DNA of 30,173 bases from an uncultured Candidatus Saccharibacteria bacterium (GCA_964488325.1 CAZAUH010000001.1:14339-44511); one strand, 5' to 3'; shown: positions 19,419-28,937, counted from the first letter of the stretch. Program-made: numbers and translations. Notes: generated by a model from the letters alone, not told the origin.

Positions 19419-20606
19419 ATGTCGAGCAAAAGAAAGCAAAAAAGAAAGGCATCTAGTGAACATCATTCACCCGATAAATCTATACTAATATTTATGATTG
19501 GTATGGCAATCTTTGGTGCCATTATGATATATGATGCAAGTGTATATATTGCTAATCAACAACCATTTAACAACCAATTTCATTTTCTTACATTACAGAT
19601 TGCATGGTTAATATTTGGAGGAATATTAGCATTTGTTGCATATTTAGTAGACTATAGAAAAATATTAAAATTTTCATTTCCTATTCTACTCACTGTTGTT
19701 TTACTACTAATATTAGTTCTTGTACTTGGTCAAGAGGTAAATGGCTCAAAAAGATGGTTTCAAATAGGTGCACTTCCACCCATACAGCCTGCTGAATTTG
19801 CTAAACTTGCAGTAATTATGTATTTCTCAAGTTGGTTTTCAAATAAAGAGTATTCCTTTACTAAGTTTGAAGATTCATTTAAAAAGGGATTCTTAAAAAA
19901 TCTAATCCCCTTTCTAGCAATACTTGGAATAGTTGCATTACTTGTTCTCTTTGAACCTGATTTGGGAACTGCAATGATAATATGTGTAACCGCCTTTATT
20001 ATGTTTTTTGTCTCTGGAAAAGATAAGGCACATAGAATTGGTTCTTTTGCTATGATTCCTCTTGTTGCTCTTTTAGGAGTAATAGCTATCATATTAGAAC
20101 CTTACAGAATATCAAGAATTCAAACATACCTAAATCTAATATTTAAAGGAGAGGTAGCAGATGCACAGGGAAGTGGGTATCAGATGCAACAGATACTTAT
20201 TGGAATTGGGAGTGGAGGATTCTGGGGAAAGGGATTTGGGCAATCAAGACAGAGGTTTGGATACTTAGTTGAAAATACCGCATTTACTGATTCAACATTT
20301 GCAGTACTTTTAGAAGAGTTGGGATTATGGGGTGGGGGATTAATAGTTCTTTCTTGGATATTTTTTCTTTGGAGAGGATTTAAAATTGCACTTAACGCTA
20401 TAGATCAACAGGGACAGTATCTTGCAACAGGAATTACCGTATGGCTTTCATGTCAAGCATTCTTTAATATGGCAGCAAATGTTGGATTAATTCCACTAAC
20501 AGGAATTCCTCTACCCTTTCTAACATACGGGGGGTCTAGTACAATAGTAACAATGATAGCTTTTGGATTACTCTTAAATGTAAGTAAATATACAAAAAAT
20601 GCTTAA
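19419..20606 (+). CDS. ftsW: SEDS-family glycan polymerase FtsW
   Basis: GSKRWF, QPAEFAK, EPDLGT, GYQ, GSGG-GKG, TD (catalytic Asp) and PLTGIPLPFLTYGGSS. Directly upstream of murG. Confidence 0.93.
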   Translation: MSSKRKQKRKASSEHHSPDKSILIFMIGMAIFGAIMIYDASVYIANQQPFNNQFHFLTLQIAWLIFGGILAFVAYLVDYRKILKFSFPILLTVVLLLILVLVLGQEVNGSKRWFQIGALPPIQPAEFAKLAVIMYFSSWFSNKEYSFTKFEDSFKKGFLKNLIPFLAILGIVALLVLFEPDLGTAMIICVTAFIMFFVSGKDKAHRIGSFAMIPLVALLGVIAIILEPYRISRIQTYLNLIFKGEVADAQGSGYQMQQILIGIGSGGFWGKGFGQSRQRFGYLVENTAFTDSTFAVLLEELGLWGGGLIVLSWIFFLWRGFKIALNAIDQQGQYLATGITVWLSCQAFFNMAANVGLIPLTGIPLPFLTYGGSSTIVTMIAFGLLLNVSKYTKNA

Positions 20607-21777
20607 ATCAGAAATAAAGATAATGATAACAGGAGGAGGTAGTGGAGGACATATCTCTGTCGTAAAAAGTATAATTCATTCTTTAGTTGAAGATTACAAT
20701 ATACCAATTGAAAACTTAATATATGTTGGAGGGGATCTTGGTATGGAGGGAGAGCAGATTGGTAACTCTCTTGAACAAAGACAGTTTAAAGATAGTAAGT
20801 TTAAAAAATACTTTATTAGAGCAGGCAAACTACAAAGGAAAATATCTTTAAAAACAGTTTATTTACTCTTTAGATCTTTACTTGGGTTTTTTGACTCAAT
20901 GTCAATTGTTAAGAAAAGTAATCCAACATTGATTTTCTCCTCTGGTGGATTTGTATCAGTACCTGTATGTATAGCAGGATGGATGTTTCATAAACCTGTA
21001 TATTTACATGAACAGACAGCCTCTGTTGGTCTTTCAAATAGAATAGTTGGTAAGTTTGCAAAAAAGATATTTGTTACTTTTAATGATTCCCTTAAATATT
21101 TCCCGAAAGCAAAAACTGTTCATGTTGGTAATATTGTAAGAAAAGAGGTGTTTGAGAAAGAGATAACACAGCAAACAGATAAAGAGATAGTATCTCTAAT
21201 GGTAACAAACAAAAAACTTCCATTTGTATATATATCTGGTGGTAGTTTAGGTTCACACAATATTAATATAAAGGTTTTTGATTCCCTAAACTCTCTTTTA
21301 AGAAAATACAGGGTACTTCTTCAAACAGGGGATAATGAGATATACAAAGATTATGAAAAAGGAATTGATATAAAGAATAAATTAACAGGAGAGTATCAAG
21401 AAAGATTCGTTGTTAAGAAATATATTGATAGCAGTAGTATTGGATATGTCTTAAATAACATGGACCTCTTTTTAGGAAGAGCTGGTGCAAACACAGTATA
21501 TGAAATAGGGGTTTTAAAAAAGTTTGCCCTTTTAATACCAATACCCTGGGTTACACATAACGAACAGTATTTAAATGCTAAGGTTTTATCTGATATTGGT
21601 ACAGCAAATATTTTAGAAGAGAAATATTTAAATAATTGTGATCTTGATAATGAGATTGTTAGATTACAAAAACAGTTAGAGATAAGAGATATTAATTATG
21701 AAAAATTAGAGAAACTCTTTCCAACTAACGCTACTTTCAAGATATTAGATGACATGTTAGGGACATATCTAAAGTAG
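20599..21777 (+). CDS. murG: Lipid I GlcNAc transferase MurG
   Basis: GGGSGGH, GGFVS, HEQ, GGSLG, RAGA...E and EQYLNA motifs. Confidence 0.93.
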   Translation: MLKSEIKIMITGGGSGGHISVVKSIIHSLVEDYNIPIENLIYVGGDLGMEGEQIGNSLEQRQFKDSKFKKYFIRAGKLQRKISLKTVYLLFRSLLGFFDSMSIVKKSNPTLIFSSGGFVSVPVCIAGWMFHKPVYLHEQTASVGLSNRIVGKFAKKIFVTFNDSLKYFPKAKTVHVGNIVRKEVFEKEITQQTDKEIVSLMVTNKKLPFVYISGGSLGSHNINIKVFDSLNSLLRKYRVLLQTGDNEIYKDYEKGIDIKNKLTGEYQERFVVKKYIDSSSIGYVLNNMDLFLGRAGANTVYEIGVLKKFALLIPIPWVTHNEQYLNAKVLSDIGTANILEEKYLNNCDLDNEIVRLQKQLEIRDINYEKLEKLFPTNATFKILDDMLGTYLK

Positions 21778-21819
21778 CTCTACTACTGTTTATTTCCCAT
21801 CTGTTATATACTCTACCTA

Positions 21820-22842
21820 ATGAAAGTAGAAAAAAATGTATCACTTAAGAAATTAAATACTTTTAGAGTAGATGTATATACTGATATTTTACTTGCCATT
21901 GATAGTGATAATGATTTTTCAAATATAGAGGTAACGGGATATTTAAAAAATGACAACCTATTAATCTTGGGTGGAGGTTCTAATATACTCTTTACAAAAG
22001 ATTTTAAAGGTTGTGTTACCTTAATACGAAATATGGGGAAGGCCATATTAGAAGAGAGTGACCAATCTCTTACCGTACAGGTTAGTGCGGGTGAAAATTG
22101 GGATGATTTTGTAAAATGGAGTGTAAAAAAGAATTTAATTGGTCTACACAATCTTGCTTTAATACCAGGAACTGTTGGTGCTACCCCAATACAAAATGTA
22201 GGAGCATATGGAGTTGAAATCAAAGATTTTCTTACTGAGGTTGAGATTATTGATATTCAAAAAGGCAGAACTGAGATAATCAAAAACAGTGAGTGTAAAT
22301 TTGGATATAGAGATAGTATATTTAAAAATGAATTAAAAGATAAAGTCATTATTAAAAGTGTTACATTTAAACTACCTAAATATGCAGGAAAATTTGATGA
22401 TAAATATACCCAATATGCAGGTATTAAAGATGAACTAAAAGAAAAAGAACCCACTCCCAAAAACATATATGACTCTGTTGTAAGACTTCGAGAAAGCAAA
22501 TTACCTAAAATAGAAGAGTTCGGTTCCTGTGGAAGTACCTTTAAAAATCCAGAGATATCAATATCAGAGTACGACAGACTTTTAAAAACATTCCCGGAGT
22601 TACCTAAGTATGATACTGATAAAAAAGGAATTGTTAAAATACCAGCAGCATATATTTTGGAAAAGTTGGGATGGAAAAATAAAAGAAAGGGAGATGTTGG
22701 AACATGGATATATCATCCTTTAATTGTTACAAACTATGGAAATGCTACTGGTCAAGAGATCCTTTCCTTTATTAATGAAATCAAATCTGATTTTAAATCT
22801 AATACTAATTTAGATTTAGAGTGTGAAATTAATATTATTTAA
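21820..22842 (+). CDS. murB: UDP-N-acetylenolpyruvoylglucosamine reductase MurB
   Basis: GGGSN, IPGTVGA, QNVGAYG, GYRDS, GSTFKNP and C-terminal LECE. Confidence 0.96.
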   Translation: MKVEKNVSLKKLNTFRVDVYTDILLAIDSDNDFSNIEVTGYLKNDNLLILGGGSNILFTKDFKGCVTLIRNMGKAILEESDQSLTVQVSAGENWDDFVKWSVKKNLIGLHNLALIPGTVGATPIQNVGAYGVEIKDFLTEVEIIDIQKGRTEIIKNSECKFGYRDSIFKNELKDKVIIKSVTFKLPKYAGKFDDKYTQYAGIKDELKEKEPTPKNIYDSVVRLRESKLPKIEEFGSCGSTFKNPEISISEYDRLLKTFPELPKYDTDKKGIVKIPAAYILEKLGWKNKRKGDVGTWIYHPLIVTNYGNATGQEILSFINEIKSDFKSNTNLDLECEINII

Positions 22843-22851
22843 TACAATCAT

Positions 22852-24144
22852 ATGTCAAACCTAATCGTTAAAGGTGGGAATAAACTAAATGGAGAGATAA
22901 CTCCTGCGGGAAATAAAAACTCCGCTCTCCCAATACTGTGTGCATCTCTTCTTACAGATGAACCTGTATTAATTAAGAATTTCCCTGAATTAACTGATGT
23001 TGGTAAATTAATTGAATTAATGCAAGAGTTAGGTTCCAAGATAGAGTGGAACAAAGAAAAACAGGAAATAAAAATAGATAACTCTCATTTTTGTAAATCT
23101 TTTGGAGATAGTGGATTTCCACTAGGAATGAGAGGTGCTGTTTTACTACTTGCACCCTTACTTCATAGACACAAGGTATTAGAAGTTAAACAGGAGATTG
23201 GAGGATGTTCATTAGGAATAAGGGAGTTAGATCCTCATTTAGAGGTACTAACAGGATTAGGGGCAAACGTTAAATCAAATGATAAAATCACTATAGAGGC
23301 AAAAGATGGTCTAACTGGTAACACCCTATGGCAAGACTATATGTCTGTTACAACTACCGAAAACTTTGCTATGGCTGCTTCTTTAGCCAAGGGAACATCA
23401 ACCATGGTAAACGCTGCATCTGAACCCCATGTGCAAGACCTATGTAACTTTCTCATTCAAATGGGTGCAAAGATAGAGGGTATTGGTTCATCAACATTGA
23501 TTGTTCATGGCGTTGAGAAACTGCATGGTACACAATTTACAATCTCTTCTGATCATCATGAAATTACTACTTTACTTGCCCTTGGGGCAATGACTGGAGG
23601 TCAGGTTAGAGTTACCAACGCTATCCCTCAACATTTTCAATTGATAAATAAGACTTTTGCAAAATTTGGGGTAGAAATTAAATATGATGGTGATACTGCA
23701 TACTCTGTAAACAACGGAGTATTAAAAGTGGTTGAACCATTTACAAAAAATCTTTTACAAAAAGTAGAAGCAGCTCCATGGCCATACTTTCCCACAGATC
23801 TTTTACCATTAATAATGGCTTTAGCTGTAAAAGCAGATGGAAATACTATGTTTTGGAATAAACTGTATGAAGGAGGACTATTCTGGATACCTGAAATGAT
23901 TAAGTTCGGGGCACATATTGTAATGTGTGATCCTCATAGAGTAATTGTGTTTGGAGGAAAAGAGTTAAGTCCAGCGACTGTTGATGCTCCCAATATTATT
24001 AGAGCAACTGTCGCCCTATTAATGGTTGCGTTAACAATAGAGGGAGAGAGTGTAATTAATAACGCAGATACTATTAAAAGAGCACATCCTAATTTTGTAG
24101 AGAACTTACAAAAACTTGGTGCAGATATTAAATGGGTTGATTAG
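22852..24144 (+). CDS. murA: UDP-GlcNAc 1-carboxyvinyltransferase MurA
   Basis: GNKNSALP, GGCSLGIR (catalytic Cys retained), TEN and FPTD. Confidence 0.95.
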   Translation: MSNLIVKGGNKLNGEITPAGNKNSALPILCASLLTDEPVLIKNFPELTDVGKLIELMQELGSKIEWNKEKQEIKIDNSHFCKSFGDSGFPLGMRGAVLLLAPLLHRHKVLEVKQEIGGCSLGIRELDPHLEVLTGLGANVKSNDKITIEAKDGLTGNTLWQDYMSVTTTENFAMAASLAKGTSTMVNAASEPHVQDLCNFLIQMGAKIEGIGSSTLIVHGVEKLHGTQFTISSDHHEITTLLALGAMTGGQVRVTNAIPQHFQLINKTFAKFGVEIKYDGDTAYSVNNGVLKVVEPFTKNLLQKVEAAPWPYFPTDLLPLIMALAVKADGNTMFWNKLYEGGLFWIPEMIKFGAHIVMCDPHRVIVFGGKELSPATVDAPNIIRATVALLMVALTIEGESVINNADTIKRAHPNFVENLQKLGADIKWVD

Positions 24145-24334
24145 TTAGGTATAACAAAGAAAAATAAATATTCCTTTCTATTAAAGCATTACTTAAAAGC
24201 AGTTCATTCTTCCTATTAGGTATATATCAATATATCTTTAATCTTCCAATTTCCCTTTCTTAAAGGTAAATATATTCATAATAGATGACTTGTAGTAATA
24301 CACTCTTGACCATCATATTAATTTGGTATACATT

Positions 24335-24375
24335 AATGGCAAGAAGTGGTAAAAAGTGGTGAAAGATGATATATT
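24335..24375 (+). promoter_or_regulatory. MraZ operator direct repeats (10-bp period) abutting an extended -10 promoter
   Basis: AAGTGGT at 24344 and 24354, with degenerate copies on each side (TGG/TGG/TGG/TGA at 24337, 24347, 24357, 24367). TGATATATT at 24367-24375 is 6 nt before the mraZ ATG. Confidence 0.82.
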
Positions 24376-24381
24376 CTTTTT

Positions 24382-24819
24382 ATGATAATTGGAGAATATA
24401 GAAGTAAAGTAGGGGATAAAAAAAGAGTATCACTTCCTAAGAAATTTAGAGATGAATTAGGTGAAGAGATAATATTAACAAGGGGTTACGAAGACGCACT
24501 AATACTTGTTAATAAGGGAATGTGGGAAAAGATTGCGAAAGATGTTATAGGTGGCTCTTTTATAAATAAAAATGTTCGTGATACTAGCAGATTCCTAATA
24601 GGTAGTGCTATAGAGATATCAATAGATAAGCAGGGAAGATTTTTAATTCCAGATTCTCTTTTTGATCATGCAGGATTAAACAAAGATGTTGTATTTTTAG
24701 GTTTAATCAATTGGATAGAGGTATGGGATAGAGAGAAATGGGATAAGAGAGTCGAATATCTAAAAGCAAATGGAGATGAAATAGCAAATGAGATTAATAA
24801 GATGAAGGAGGAGAAATAG
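24382..24819 (+). CDS. mraZ: Transcriptional regulator MraZ
   Basis: GEYRSKVGDKKRVSLP, DKQGRFLIP and IEVWD motifs; heads the rsmH-ftsL-ftsI run. Confidence 0.95.
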   Translation: MIIGEYRSKVGDKKRVSLPKKFRDELGEEIILTRGYEDALILVNKGMWEKIAKDVIGGSFINKNVRDTSRFLIGSAIEISIDKQGRFLIPDSLFDHAGLNKDVVFLGLINWIEVWDREKWDKRVEYLKANGDEIANEINKMKEEK

Positions 24820-25707
24820 ATGGAAAAGATACACATACCTGTACTTTTAGATGAAGTCATTAGTTTCCTTGAAATTAAGCCTAATGGTTTTTACATTGAT
24901 TGCACACTAGGAGATGGGGGACACAGTTTTGAGATATATAAAAGATTGAGTAGCGATGGACTACTTCTTAGTATAGATCAAGATCAATATGCTATCGATT
25001 TTGTTCAAGAGTATTACAAAGATGTGATAAAGAAAAATTGGGTTATAAAAAAATCTAATTTTTCAAAGATTGCCTCTATTACATCCCAATACGAAAGACA
25101 ACCCGATGGGATATTAATGGATTTAGGTCTCTCATCTAGACAGTTAGAGGATTCACATAACAGAGGTTTTAGCTACTTAGAAGAGAGTGAACCATTAGAT
25201 ATGAGAATGGATGAGGAGTTAGGAGTAAAAGCTAAAGATATCCTAGTAGTCCTTTCAGAGAAAGATTTATCTACACTCTTTCTAAAATATGGAGAGGAAA
25301 AATATGCTAGAAAAATTGCTAAAGCTATTAAAGATGATATTACGAATATTATTACGGTTGGAGATCTTACAAGACTTGTCTATAGAGTTGTGCCGACAGC
25401 TCATCAAAATTCAAAGAACCCTTCACGCAGGGTCTTTCAGGCCCTGCGTATTGTGGTAAATGATGAACTAAACTCTTTGAAAGAGGGCTTAGACAAATCT
25501 TTTAAGCTCTTAAATCAAAAAGGAAGGATATGCGTAATATCTTTCCATTCGCTCGAAGATAGAATAGTTAAAGATTACTTTAACAGTTTAGTTGATAGCG
25601 GAGAGGGATTACTTCTTACCAAACAATTAAGTGCCCCAACCGACCAAGAGGTAAGAGACAATCCCAGATCCGCTTCAGCTAAATTAAGAGTATTAGAGAA
25701 AATATAA
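24820..25707 (+). CDS. rsmH: 16S rRNA m4C1402 methyltransferase RsmH
   Basis: HIPVL, DCTLGDGGHS, DLGLSS, PLDMRM, ISFHSLEDR and NPRSASAKLR. Confidence 0.97.
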   Translation: MEKIHIPVLLDEVISFLEIKPNGFYIDCTLGDGGHSFEIYKRLSSDGLLLSIDQDQYAIDFVQEYYKDVIKKNWVIKKSNFSKIASITSQYERQPDGILMDLGLSSRQLEDSHNRGFSYLEESEPLDMRMDEELGVKAKDILVVLSEKDLSTLFLKYGEEKYARKIAKAIKDDITNIITVGDLTRLVYRVVPTAHQNSKNPSRRVFQALRIVVNDELNSLKEGLDKSFKLLNQKGRICVISFHSLEDRIVKDYFNSLVDSGEGLLLTKQLSAPTDQEVRDNPRSASAKLRVLEKI

Positions 25708-25724
25708 CAGTAGTTTACTGCCCA

Positions 25725-26030
25725 ATGAAAACAACTGAAAAAATAAAAGGGTCCATATTTCCAAAGATATTAATCTTTTCATTTGTTCTCTTTACAGTAT
25801 CCCAATTAGTAGTTAATTCTGTTTTAACACCACTTGGTACTAGACTAGAATCTTTAAATACAGAAAAAGAACATCTTTTAGAGGAAAACAGGGTAGTATC
25901 CGAAGAGATAGCAAAAAACAGCTCTCTTAAAGTAATCGAAAGCCTTTCTGGAAAGAAGTTAAATCTTTCACAAACTAAAGTGCAAACATTTGTATATATT
26001 GAGGATTCTACATTAGTAGCTAATAACTAA
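25725..26030 (+). CDS. ftsL: Cell division protein FtsL-like
   Basis: Small bitopic protein with one TM and a coiled coil (LESLNTEKEHLLEEN), located between rsmH and ftsI. Its stop overlaps the ftsI start (TAATG). Confidence 0.7.
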   Translation: MKTTEKIKGSIFPKILIFSFVLFTVSQLVVNSVLTPLGTRLESLNTEKEHLLEENRVVSEEIAKNSSLKVIESLSGKKLNLSQTKVQTFVYIEDSTLVANN

Positions 26031-27874
26031 TGAGTAGGCTAAATCATCTACATTCTTCAAAACATAAGGGGAAAAAATCTTCTATTGGTGCTAAAATTCA
26101 AAAAAATAACTATAACTTTGTAATAGCCTTTTTGACAATATTAGGCCTTGTAGTTCTAATTCAAGCATTCCGTTGGCAAGTTTTAGAATCAGATAAATTT
26201 ATTGCTATTGCAAAACAACAGTATACCGATAAAGGGAAACAGACTGCTGAAAGGGGAATGATATACGCAAACGATGGAACAATTCTTGCAGTAGACCAAC
26301 CCATATGGAATGTATTTGCCTCTTTAAGTACAGATGAGAAAGAAAGAGAGCTCTTCTTTAGTAAAAAAGATCTTTTCATCTCAACAATATCCTCTATTCT
26401 TGCTGTAGAAAATGAGAGTATTGAAAGTAAAATAACTGACGACTTTCAATACGTTAACCTAGCGAAAGGTGTCGATACTGAAACAAAAATAGCAATTGAA
26501 AGTGCGAATATCTTTGGAAATGAAGATACCAATAGAGCTGGATTTGGTCTCTATTTTGAAAGAGCGTTAAAAAGGGTATATCCCAATGGAGAGCTTGCAT
26601 CTCATGTTTTGGGTTTCATTGGAAAAGATAGTGAAGGAAGCGATTTAGGACAGTATGGTATAGAAGGTTTTTACTTCGGAGATATTACCGGTAAGGAAGG
26701 ATACACATACGAAGAAAAGGATTCTTTAGGTAACACTATCTTAACAGCAGAATATGAACCTGTACTTCCTAGATCTGGTAAAGATTTTACACTTACTATT
26801 AAACCATCACTTCAAAACAAAGTAGAAAGGATATTAAAAGAGAATGTTGAAAAGACTAGTTCAAAAAGTGGAAGTGTGATAATAATGAATCCAAAAACAG
26901 GAGAGATTTTGTCTATTGCAAACTATCCCTCTTACAATCCTAATGAGTATTGGAGAATATCCGATCCATGGGTATTTAAGAATCTAGTAGTTGCTGATGT
27001 CTACGAATACGGTTCTGTTCAGAAACCAATTACCGTTTCAATTGCTCTTGAATCTGGTGATGTCCCTAAAGACTTCACATGCAATGACAAAACAGGATAC
27101 TTGGATCTATATGAAGCAACAGGATATGCAGATTTAAAGGGAAGAAAAATATATCAATGGGATAAAAGACCTGATGGTCTTCAAACATTAGCAGATATGT
27201 TAAAAAATTCTAATAACCCCTGTATAGCTAGAACTGCACTAGAGGTAGACTTTAAATACTTCTATAACAAGCTTAAAGAGTTTGGGATAGGTAGCTTTAT
27301 TGGAATAGGATTACAAGAGGAAAGTAATAGCTACTTAAAATCAGATGCACAGTGGACCAAGCTTGATACAATTACTGCATCCTATGGACAGGGTATATCT
27401 GCTACTCAACTTCAGGTAATCTCTGCTATTAGTACAATAGCAAACCATGGTAAAAGAATGAGACCATATATTATCTCCTCAATATCAGATGAAAAAGAAA
27501 AAATAAATTTTCAACCTCAGGTTCTTTCAGAACCAATTTCTTCTGAGACCGCAGATGCTGTAGCAGAGATGATGACACACGTTATTGAGGATGGAGGAAT
27601 TAATATTAAATACATTAAACAGTTAGAGGACTATTACATTGCAGGTAAAACAGGAACTTCCCAGGTTGCGAAAAAAGATGGTGTGGGATATGAAGAGGAT
27701 AAAACAATTACTACCTTTGTTGGTTTTGCTCCAGCTGATGATGCAAAGATGATAATGCTTGTAAGATTAGAAGAGCCAAAAAACAACCAGTATGCAGCAA
27801 ACACTGTAGTACCTATGTGGACTGAAATATTTCTAAATATTGTTAATGACCTAGAAATCTCAAAGAGAAATTGA
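26030..27874 (+). CDS. ftsI: Class B penicillin-binding protein (FtsI/PBP2-type transpeptidase)
   Basis: N-terminal TM, RGMIY and RVYP dimerisation-domain motifs, SxxK (SVQK), SxN (SNN) and KTG. Confidence 0.92.
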   Translation: MSRLNHLHSSKHKGKKSSIGAKIQKNNYNFVIAFLTILGLVVLIQAFRWQVLESDKFIAIAKQQYTDKGKQTAERGMIYANDGTILAVDQPIWNVFASLSTDEKERELFFSKKDLFISTISSILAVENESIESKITDDFQYVNLAKGVDTETKIAIESANIFGNEDTNRAGFGLYFERALKRVYPNGELASHVLGFIGKDSEGSDLGQYGIEGFYFGDITGKEGYTYEEKDSLGNTILTAEYEPVLPRSGKDFTLTIKPSLQNKVERILKENVEKTSSKSGSVIIMNPKTGEILSIANYPSYNPNEYWRISDPWVFKNLVVADVYEYGSVQKPITVSIALESGDVPKDFTCNDKTGYLDLYEATGYADLKGRKIYQWDKRPDGLQTLADMLKNSNNPCIARTALEVDFKYFYNKLKEFGIGSFIGIGLQEESNSYLKSDAQWTKLDTITASYGQGISATQLQVISAISTIANHGKRMRPYIISSISDEKEKINFQPQVLSEPISSETADAVAEMMTHVIEDGGINIKYIKQLEDYYIAGKTGTSQVAKKDGVGYEEDKTITTFVGFAPADDAKMIMLVRLEEPKNNQYAANTVVPMWTEIFLNIVNDLEISKRN

Positions 27875-27908: not shown

Positions 27909-28937
27909 ATGATTGAAATTCTAAAAGAGAGTCTCCAATATCTATTCATTTCTACACTAGCATCTGTACTTCTTGCACCAATCATGATTAGTATACTCTA
28001 CAAACTGAATCAGGTAAGTGGACTTAAGAAAACAGAACTTGGATCAAGAGAGGGAACCAATTCCATATTCATGAGAATTATGAAATCAACTCAAACAAAT
28101 GGTACACCAAATATGGGTGGCGTACTAATTTGGATTGTTGTTCCTTTAATAGCATATATATTTACCCCTATGTTTCCACAGTTAAGAGCTCTTCTAATTG
28201 GCTTTATGCTTTTTGGGTTTTGGGGCTTTGTAGATGTTGCAATATTTACAAATGGGTTTAAGAATAATCCTAAGATAAAGGCAATGCAAGAAACTTTTGA
28301 ATGGAGATTAGGTAAGCTCCTATTCACTATTCTTCTTAATATTATAATAATGTATCTTCTATATAGTACCGGTACTTTTACAACACTATCACTTACAAAT
28401 ACAATTGTACTTTCAATAACACCAGCAATACTTCTACTTATCGCAATAGTTAGTCAATTTGCAATCTATTCTGGAGAGCTAACTGATGGATTAGATGGTC
28501 TAATGGTAGGTATATTTATCATTATTATTTGTGCTATGTCTATGCTATTAATAGTACAACAGCAGTACGCCTTCTTACCATTTCTTGCAATTACATTAGG
28601 GGTATTAGTAGTTGATCTTTACTTTAATATTCCTCCAGCAAGATTTTGGAATGGGGGACCAGGTGCTATGCCTTTGGCCTTCTCTATCTTTTTTATTGGC
28701 TTAGTAACAAACAATATTCTTCCATATTTCCTAATGACCTCTGTTACATGGTTAATAATGGGATCAAGTGCAATACAGATATTAAGTATGAAATTCTTTA
28801 AGAAGAGGGTATTTAAGATAGCTCCAATACATCATCACTTCCAAGCAGTAGGATGGCCTCAGTACAAAATTACAATGAGGTTTTGGCTATTTACACTCTT
28901 TGCATGTATCTTAGGACTATTTGTAGGATTACTCTAA
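27909..28937 (+). CDS. mraY: MraY-family polyprenyl-phosphate sugar-phosphotransferase with atypical active site
   Basis: About 10 TMs, TPxMGG, TDGLDGL and APIHHHF, in the dcw position. The DD and MGD catalytic motifs are altered (see findings). Confidence 0.85.
   Translation: MIEILKESLQYLFISTLASVLLAPIMISILYKLNQVSGLKKTELGSREGTNSIFMRIMKSTQTNGTPNMGGVLIWIVVPLIAYIFTPMFPQLRALLIGFMLFGFWGFVDVAIFTNGFKNNPKIKAMQETFEWRLGKLLFTILLNIIIMYLLYSTGTFTTLSLTNTIVLSITPAILLLIAIVSQFAIYSGELTDGLDGLMVGIFIIIICAMSMLLIVQQQYAFLPFLAITLGVLVVDLYFNIPPARFWNGGPGAMPLAFSIFFIGLVTNNILPYFLMTSVTWLIMGSSAIQILSMKFFKKRVFKIAPIHHHFQAVGWPQYKITMRFWLFTLFACILGLFVGLL

Follow-up and report, generated by a model that had tools for sequence, protein, structure and literature searches.

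The mraY gene of an uncultured bacterium catalogued as Candidatus Saccharibacteria encodes a protein that keeps one of the three aspartates of the MraY active site, and we consider that it is probably still an active lipid I synthase (phospho-MurNAc transferase) whose Mg2+-binding carboxylate has been relocated. As an antibiotic target MraY is essential and has been studied intensively, and its DDD motif is regarded as both invariant and catalytic. Our reading is drawn from the fold, the retained residues, the selection acting on the gene, its occurrence as the sole MraY in complete pathways and a coupling between positions 190 and 265 of the metal site. The rewired MraY is most likely a working enzyme, given that an entire lineage of tiny uncultured bacteria has the same changes fixed; this lineage has been long-lived with one of the three aspartates, and in genomes with a full pathway the protein is the sole candidate for its step. 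Literature searches that paired MraY with CPR, Patescibacteria or Dojkabacteria turned up no published description of the variant. New in this analysis are the distribution of the paralogues, the stepwise order of the changes, the finding that the rewired type and a canonical sister exclude each other, and the independence of the rewiring from Mur-ligase loss.

Gene context, active-site residues and fold

The gene lies in a 30,173-nt window (the whole stretch of DNA that was analysed; GCA_964488325.1, CAZAUH010000001.1:14339-44511), in which ftsW-murG-murB-murA precede an mraZ-rsmH-ftsL-ftsI-mraY block. As the first-pass annotation of this DNA had stated, the ORF has a full-length frame (342 aa) and belongs to the operon, of which it is the final gene, starting 34 nt past the ftsI stop. 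The features are:

19419..24144, plus strand: ftsW, murG, murB and murA, which act on either side of the MraY step, producing UDP-MurNAc before it and consuming lipid I and lipid II after it
24382..26030, plus strand: mraZ, rsmH and a small ftsL-like gene, with orthologues in identical order in relatives
26030..27874, plus strand: ftsI (class B PBP), transpeptidase motifs SVQK, SNN and KTG unbroken
27909..28937, plus strand: rewired mraY (protein P0001, 342 aa), with an MraY fold and a PF00953 match
28110..28112, plus strand: N68 (codon AAT) at the MraY T75 position in the uridine-adjacent pocket, from alignments and codon read-out; invariant in 122 homologues
28233..28238, plus strand: D109 V110 (codons GAT GTT; motif GFVDV) in place of the DD pair, D117 being retained and D118 replaced by Val; invariant
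28476..28496, plus strand: E190-L-T-D193-G-L-D196 (ELTDGLDGL; E190 is GAG), with Glu where MraY has N190 and DPAGT1 has N185, the Mg2+-ligand Asn (PMC6218659, PMC6606608), and with D193 and D196 retained
28647..28658, plus strand: W247 N248 G249 G250 (RFWNGG) in place of F262 M263 G264 D265, the Mg2+-binding Asp becoming Gly; invariant
28830..28838, plus strand: H308 H309 H310, the HHH motif, unbroken in translation and alignment

Residues were read from the translation, from HMMER alignments to solved MraYs (C. bolteae, E. coli and A. aeolicus) and from the codons, and all three agree; the chain numbering of 4J72 is native plus 6, so N68 pairs with T75. The replacements singled out in the first-pass annotation (GFVDV, E190, WNGG with G250 as GGA, N68 and a missing upstream Lys) and the intact HHH motif were all borne out. 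N248 is encoded by AAT and G250 by GGA, two changes away from any Asp codon, and T63 occupies the usual position of the upstream Lys in the TPNMGG region. Retained in P0001 are D109 (=D117), K136 (the TM5 Lys), D193, D196, N240 (=N255) and H308-310, and the uridine-binding and loop motifs (D193, G194, L195, D196, N240 and the aromatic W247) are, together with H308-310, present and invariant or nearly so.

An AF2 model of P0001 (145 homologues) has a pLDDT of 93.2 and a pTM of 0.92, and its 22 top Foldseek matches are all MraY (TM 0.73-0.82, the best 0.78-0.82), with DPAGT1 ranking below them. Like the solved bacterial MraYs (4J72, 5CKR and 6OYH from A. aeolicus, 5JNQ from C. bolteae and 8G01 from E. 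coli), to which it is 20-24% identical, P0001 has the ten-helix PNPT fold (TM 0.78-0.82), TPxMGG, D117, the TM5 Lys, DGLDGL (D193, D196), FN(x)PA, G264 and HHH, and a location in the dcw cluster adjoining ftsI. It differs from them by D118->Val, D265->Gly, N190->Glu, N187->Tyr, T75->Asn, M263->Asn and K70->Thr. P0001 scores 34.2 bits against PF00953 (Glycos_transf_4; cut-off 27) and 110 bits against TIGR00445 (mraY; cut-off 192), under which motif-canonical Dojkabacteria MraYs also fall, with 170 and 145 bits. WecA and TagO-type GlcNAc-1-P transferases belong to the same PNPT superfamily (PF00953), but P0001 fits MraY models far better: no WecA model in NCBIfam matched it at E <= 0.01, the matches being to mraY and archaeal MraY only. 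Judged by its alignments, P0001 is a descendant of MraY that fails the family's textbook DDD criterion (D117, D118 and D265, A. aeolicus numbering), with D109 kept, V110 at 118 and G250 at 265.

The metal site and its evolution

In A. aeolicus MraY, T75, N190, D193 and G264 line one uridine-adjacent pocket, D265 binds Mg2+, and D117, D118 and D265 are described as critical (PMC6606608), in agreement with what the first-pass annotation had stated of this enzyme. Its further claim that the changes cluster in one pocket also holds, since they fall on the homologues of T75, N190, M263, D265 and D118, which published structures locate at the Mg2+ site and in the pocket adjacent to uridine (PMC6606608).

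A mechanistic precedent is offered by human DPAGT1/GPT (UDP-GlcNAc:dolichyl-P GlcNAc-1-P transferase; 6FM9, 5O5E, 6BW5), which shares superfamily and fold with P0001 (TM 0.66-0.74) but is eukaryotic, uses another donor and lipid acceptor and keeps the Asn/Asp pair. In the substrate-bound enzyme Mg2+ is coordinated by Asn185 (=190), Asp252 (=265) and the pyrophosphate, and the DD pair contacts neither metal nor substrate; Asp116 caps TMH8, hydrogen-bonds to Ser57 and Thr253 and supports Asp252 (PMC6218659). The DD pair of DPAGT1 is accordingly structural and mutable, with at least 10% activity in D115 and D116 mutants, and Asp252 is not strictly essential (D252A 7%, D252N 5-fold higher), whereas N185D is inactivating at 0.7% of wild type (PMC6218659). 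An acidic residue at the 190-equivalent is therefore not harmless alone. Motif alignment places Asn185 at position 190 of P0001 and Asp252 at position 250, and because these two are joint Mg2+ ligands in DPAGT1, Glu at 190 appears well placed to replace the lost carboxylate, as the first-pass annotation had proposed. Taken by homology with the published positions, all five replacements would lie in one connected network around the metal.

We predict the following mechanism. In the canonical PNPT site the amide of the Asn190-equivalent and the carboxylate of the Asp265-equivalent would together hold Mg2+, which bridges the UDP pyrophosphate. In the rewired site the carboxylate would have moved across, being supplied by Glu190 while position 265 is Gly, such that one acidic ligand is preserved. 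D118, if its role is the structural one seen in DPAGT1 (capping TM8, hydrogen-bonding to the T75-equivalent and supporting the metal-binding Asp), would have become dispensable, and its replacement (D to E, G or V) would have been accompanied by T75N and M263N, both of them lining this pocket. In other respects the reaction would be that of MraY, with undecaprenyl phosphate receiving phospho-MurNAc(-peptide) from the UDP donor.

Comparative data are consistent with such a relocation. An exhaustive profile-free search returned 4418 relatives with just 15 clusters at E <= 1e-30, marking the rewired MraY as a small subfamily. The best 150 representatives were aligned with sequences from the relatives' genomes, and a tree was computed with the trait columns masked. 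In 132 full-length MraY-like cluster representatives, the combination of an acidic residue at 190 with a non-acidic one at 265 occurs 20 times and the opposite arrangement 108 times, while 4 lack an acidic residue at either position and none is acidic at both; this coupling gives further support to the proposed role of the new Glu. P0001 conforms in having one acidic residue in the N190/D265 pair, relocated as E190 with G250, where E190 is the predicted metal ligand.

In the tree, the rewired sequences fall in an 18-row Dojkabacteria-centred clade (SH-aLRT 98) with E or D at 190 and G, A or S at 265, whose sister is the canonical-motif P0133. Position 118 varies within the clade (D in 5 rows, E in 3, G in 3 and V in 7, the last being the subclade of P0001, in which T75N and M263N always co-occur), and the deeper members have DD or DE with E/D190 and G/A265. 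These states suggest a likely order in which N190 became acidic with the loss of D265, and D118 was lost later within the clade. Two sequences elsewhere in the tree (P0176 and P0195) have arrived at this swap on their own, pairing D190 with N or T at 265, which suggests that carboxylate relocation has recurred outside the clade. The tree requires three separate origins of the swap, all in one direction, although three independent pairs (p = 0.25) are too few for significance. N187->Lys accompanies N190->Asp and D265->Asn/Thr in P0176 and in P0195, which is named Patescibacteria group bacterium.

A third active-site configuration was seen in 16 cluster representatives (P0139, P0146, P0149, P0177 and others, with L038 from G008:C41 as a genomic example). 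It has T75->Arg, N190->Gly/Ser/Ala and D265->Glu (YMGE) with DD and HHH kept, apparently a co-varying rebuild of the same site.

If the rewired MraY is active, it is a natural test of the DDD residues and would support the view based on DPAGT1 that the DD pair is structural and that what counts at Mg2+ is one carboxylate and one amide or carboxylate. The pocket also binds natural nucleoside inhibitors, and the variant would show how much change it tolerates with function kept. The changes sit where tunicamycin, mureidomycin, muraymycin and capuramycin-class inhibitors make contact, and the variant might bind these poorly too.

MraY-type genes and Mur ligases in related genomes

The metagenome-assembled source genome (646 kb, 90 contigs) carries two GT4 genes only, the rewired mraY and the following:

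L002:1360-2568 (source genome contig C2), minus strand: WecA-like second GT4, 402 aa, TIGR02380 50 bits

With TIGR00445, PF00953 and a canonical Dojkabacteria MraY as queries, no canonical mraY was found in this genome, which is 74.6% complete, and for that reason the absence of a second mraY was judged on closed relatives. Each of five near-complete or closed genomes of the same GTDB family (G103, G015, G023, G080 and G083) carries exactly the rewired MraY and the WecA-like GT4; the second, canonical mraY that the first-pass annotation had thought worth seeking was found neither in the source genome nor in closed relatives. G103, a closed single contig, contains MurA, MurB, MurC, MurD, MurE, MurF, Ddl, MurG, FtsW and FtsI with the rewired form as its sole MraY-type gene, and on this gene content no protein but the rewired one is a candidate for making lipid I in an otherwise complete pathway. 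G023 and G080 have 4-5 Mur ligases beside the same two GT4 genes. G025 belongs to another family; it has 5 ligase matches, and its sole form is the intermediate DD/D190/A265. MurG, the user of lipid I, is present in 96 of the 99 family genomes, and in relatives the rewired mraY always adjoins ftsI or murA.

The L002-type GT4 keeps DD (LDDV) but has GGSPG in place of DGxDG and Ser at the D265-equivalent, and ends in a conserved C-terminal SPESKYSY tail. Because it is found throughout the order, including genomes with a canonical MraY, we assign it a separate function and consider it unlikely to be the real MraY; it could be a PNPT that works differently, or a pseudo-enzyme.

Four family genomes (G046 and G065-67; genera g28 and g33) are without the rewired type and carry a 315-326-aa MraY with canonical DD/N/D/HHH. 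This canonical-motif sister (P0133 type) is the nearest canonical relative of the rewired clade (SH-aLRT 96). It resembles P0001 in length (34-38% identity), belongs to the same bacterial family and also lies in the dcw cluster, but keeps DD, N190, FMGD and HHH and sits after murG, whereas the rewired gene sits after ftsI. None of the family genomes examined carries both types, a pattern that fits two alternatives for a single task. The sister loci (L066:1613-2560, L067, L070 and L073), with the order murG-mraY-murF (minus strand), provide a natural control. A further short MraY-like paralogue (315-328 aa) occurs sporadically in the family (L047, L068, L069, L071 and L072; G014, G065, G066, G097 and G047), with TPSSFG, DD, NSFNITDGxDGL, FLGDSGSY and HLHLLNS and a TIGR00445 score of 119 bits.

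The fully rewired form coexists with a long canonical MraY in three genomes of about 1 Mb from another family of the same order (G031, G035 and G042), where the rewired copy lies between murA and mraZ and the canonical one 13 kb upstream among Mur ligases. The maintenance of two copies in genomes of this size argues for some functional difference rather than simple redundancy. The two types are far apart in the tree and are not recent duplicates, which rules out recent duplication of the long canonical Dojkabacteria MraY as the origin of the rewired gene. In G031 the genes form a super-cluster (L059/L065; G031:C1:245000-278900) that runs cmk, ftsW, murG, an 865-aa gene, an ATP-grasp gene, canonical mraY, a DegT-like aminotransferase, murF-like, murE, murC, murB, murA, rewired mraY, mraZ, rsmH, ftsL and ftsI; the arrangement in the window resembles it minus the middle block of about 15 kb.

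Mur ligases are unevenly distributed over the 99 family genomes (none in 30, one in 35, two in 13, three in 4 and four or more in 17), and the single gene of the one-ligase genomes is MurF-like, adjoins the cluster and is divergent from mraZ. In the window this MurF slot is empty, with a 237-bp gap between murA and mraZ (24145-24381). No Mur ligase was found in the source genome or in the near-complete G001, G004, G012, G015 and G083 (in G001, G004, G015 and G083 not even at E <= 1), all of which keep MurA, MurB, MurG, FtsW and FtsI. Since its genus has no Mur ligase, the source organism may be missing the usual donor, UDP-MurNAc-pentapeptide. A D-Ala-D-Ala ligase gene is kept in two near-complete genomes of this genus (G001:C12:32030-32632 and G004:C16:4531-5064), where the absence of Mur ligases leaves no known enzyme to use its product.

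Together with the rewired site, the repeated loss of Mur ligases in the family raises the question of which cell-wall precursor these episymbiont-like bacteria make. The enzyme could be an active transferase with a changed donor (UDP-MurNAc without peptide or with a truncated or scavenged one, or another UDP-sugar), a functional paralogue of MraY that makes a lipid I analogue. We judge this alternative unlikely. The coexistence of both forms in three small genomes speaks for it, as do the six ligase-free genomes named above, which make UDP-MurNAc with the rewired MraY as its only evident consumer, and the location of the replacements in the pocket beside the sugar-phosphate (PMC6606608). Canonical B. 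subtilis MraY, moreover, requires at least the L-Ala-iso-D-Glu dipeptide on its donor (PMC4987650). The rewired pocket, however, stays the same whether a genome has 0, 1 or 4-5 Mur ligases and so does not track the available donor, the HHH motif is unaltered, and FtsI keeps all of its transpeptidase motifs (SVQK, SNN, KTG), implying that stem peptides still exist. Ligase loss also extends to the carriers of the canonical-motif sister (G046, G065-67), which have one ligase each; this, with the constancy of the pocket, indicates that ligase loss is not explained by the rewiring, and the idea that the rewired MraY caused it is weakened accordingly. It is likewise rather unlikely that in ligase-free genomes the enzyme loads peptide-free phospho-MurNAc, or MurNAc with a scavenged peptide, on the lipid carrier, from which MurG and FtsW would build glycan through a lipid I/II analogue without MurC-F.

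Conservation, selection and the case for an inactive protein

Homologues of P0001 occur at 53-97% identity across the GTDB family of the source genome, and the names of close database matches assign the source organism to Candidatus Dojkabacteria (WS6, CPR). Across 122 homologues (62-100% identity) the new residues T63, N68, V110, Y187, E190, W247, N248 and G250 are invariant, as are the functional residues D109, K136, D193, D196, N240 and H308. Pairwise dN/dS against the gene at 27909-28937 is 0.03-0.11, indicating strong purifying selection, and these values and the invariance of both new and retained catalytic residues uphold the first-pass annotation in its argument against decay and show that close relatives share the changes under such selection, a point it had proposed to check.

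The preferred reading, a working lipid I synthase, has points against it: D117, D118 and D265 are reported critical in MraY (PMC6606608), N185D inactivates DPAGT1, G031, G035 and G042 carry two copies, and the source genus is without Mur ligases. Some of these could equally describe a dead MraY kept for a structural or regulatory role within the machinery for division and the cell wall, with lipid I made otherwise or not at all, the scaffold that the first-pass annotation had named as its alternative. Two of three aspartates reported critical are gone (PMC6606608), the TIGR00445 score is under the cut-off, a canonical MraY is co-present in some relatives, and the patchy loss of Mur ligases with an apparently split murG in a few genomes is readable as a decaying pathway. 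Yet a scaffold would not need D109, K136, D193, D196, N240 and H308-310, all invariant in the 122 sequences, nor does it account for the way in which every member of the clade makes up for the lost carboxylate at the position of the partner ligand. The rewired gene is the sole MraY-type gene where the MurA-F, MurG, FtsW and FtsI set is complete, the only other GT4 being the WecA-like protein without DGxDG and the D265-equivalent, and MurG, which depends on lipid I, is kept nearly throughout the family. Scores below the TIGR00445 cut-off are general for Dojkabacteria MraYs, canonical ones included. Weakened chiefly by the residue invariance and the sole-MraY genomes, the scaffold survives as an improbable alternative.

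The rewired residues recur in about 90 genomes that were assembled independently, and over 100 database clusters have them as well. A search over sequencing runs of any kind matched DNA runs only, and independent wastewater and bioreactor runs gave contigs without indels in which the key codons are unchanged among the differences listed; the assembly errors that the first-pass annotation had allowed for did not appear. With this breadth of sampling, the full frame and the dN/dS values, there is a negligible chance that the gene is an artefact of sequencing or assembly or has lately become a pseudogene.

The apparently split murG genes were seen in four genomes of the source genus (G003:C18:9596-10881, G010:C13:12370-13436, G014:C11:4851-6112 and G007:C7:7912-9051), where the gene is in two frames or has two TAG stops, perhaps through assembly error or the onset of decay; the rewired mraY is unbroken in all four.
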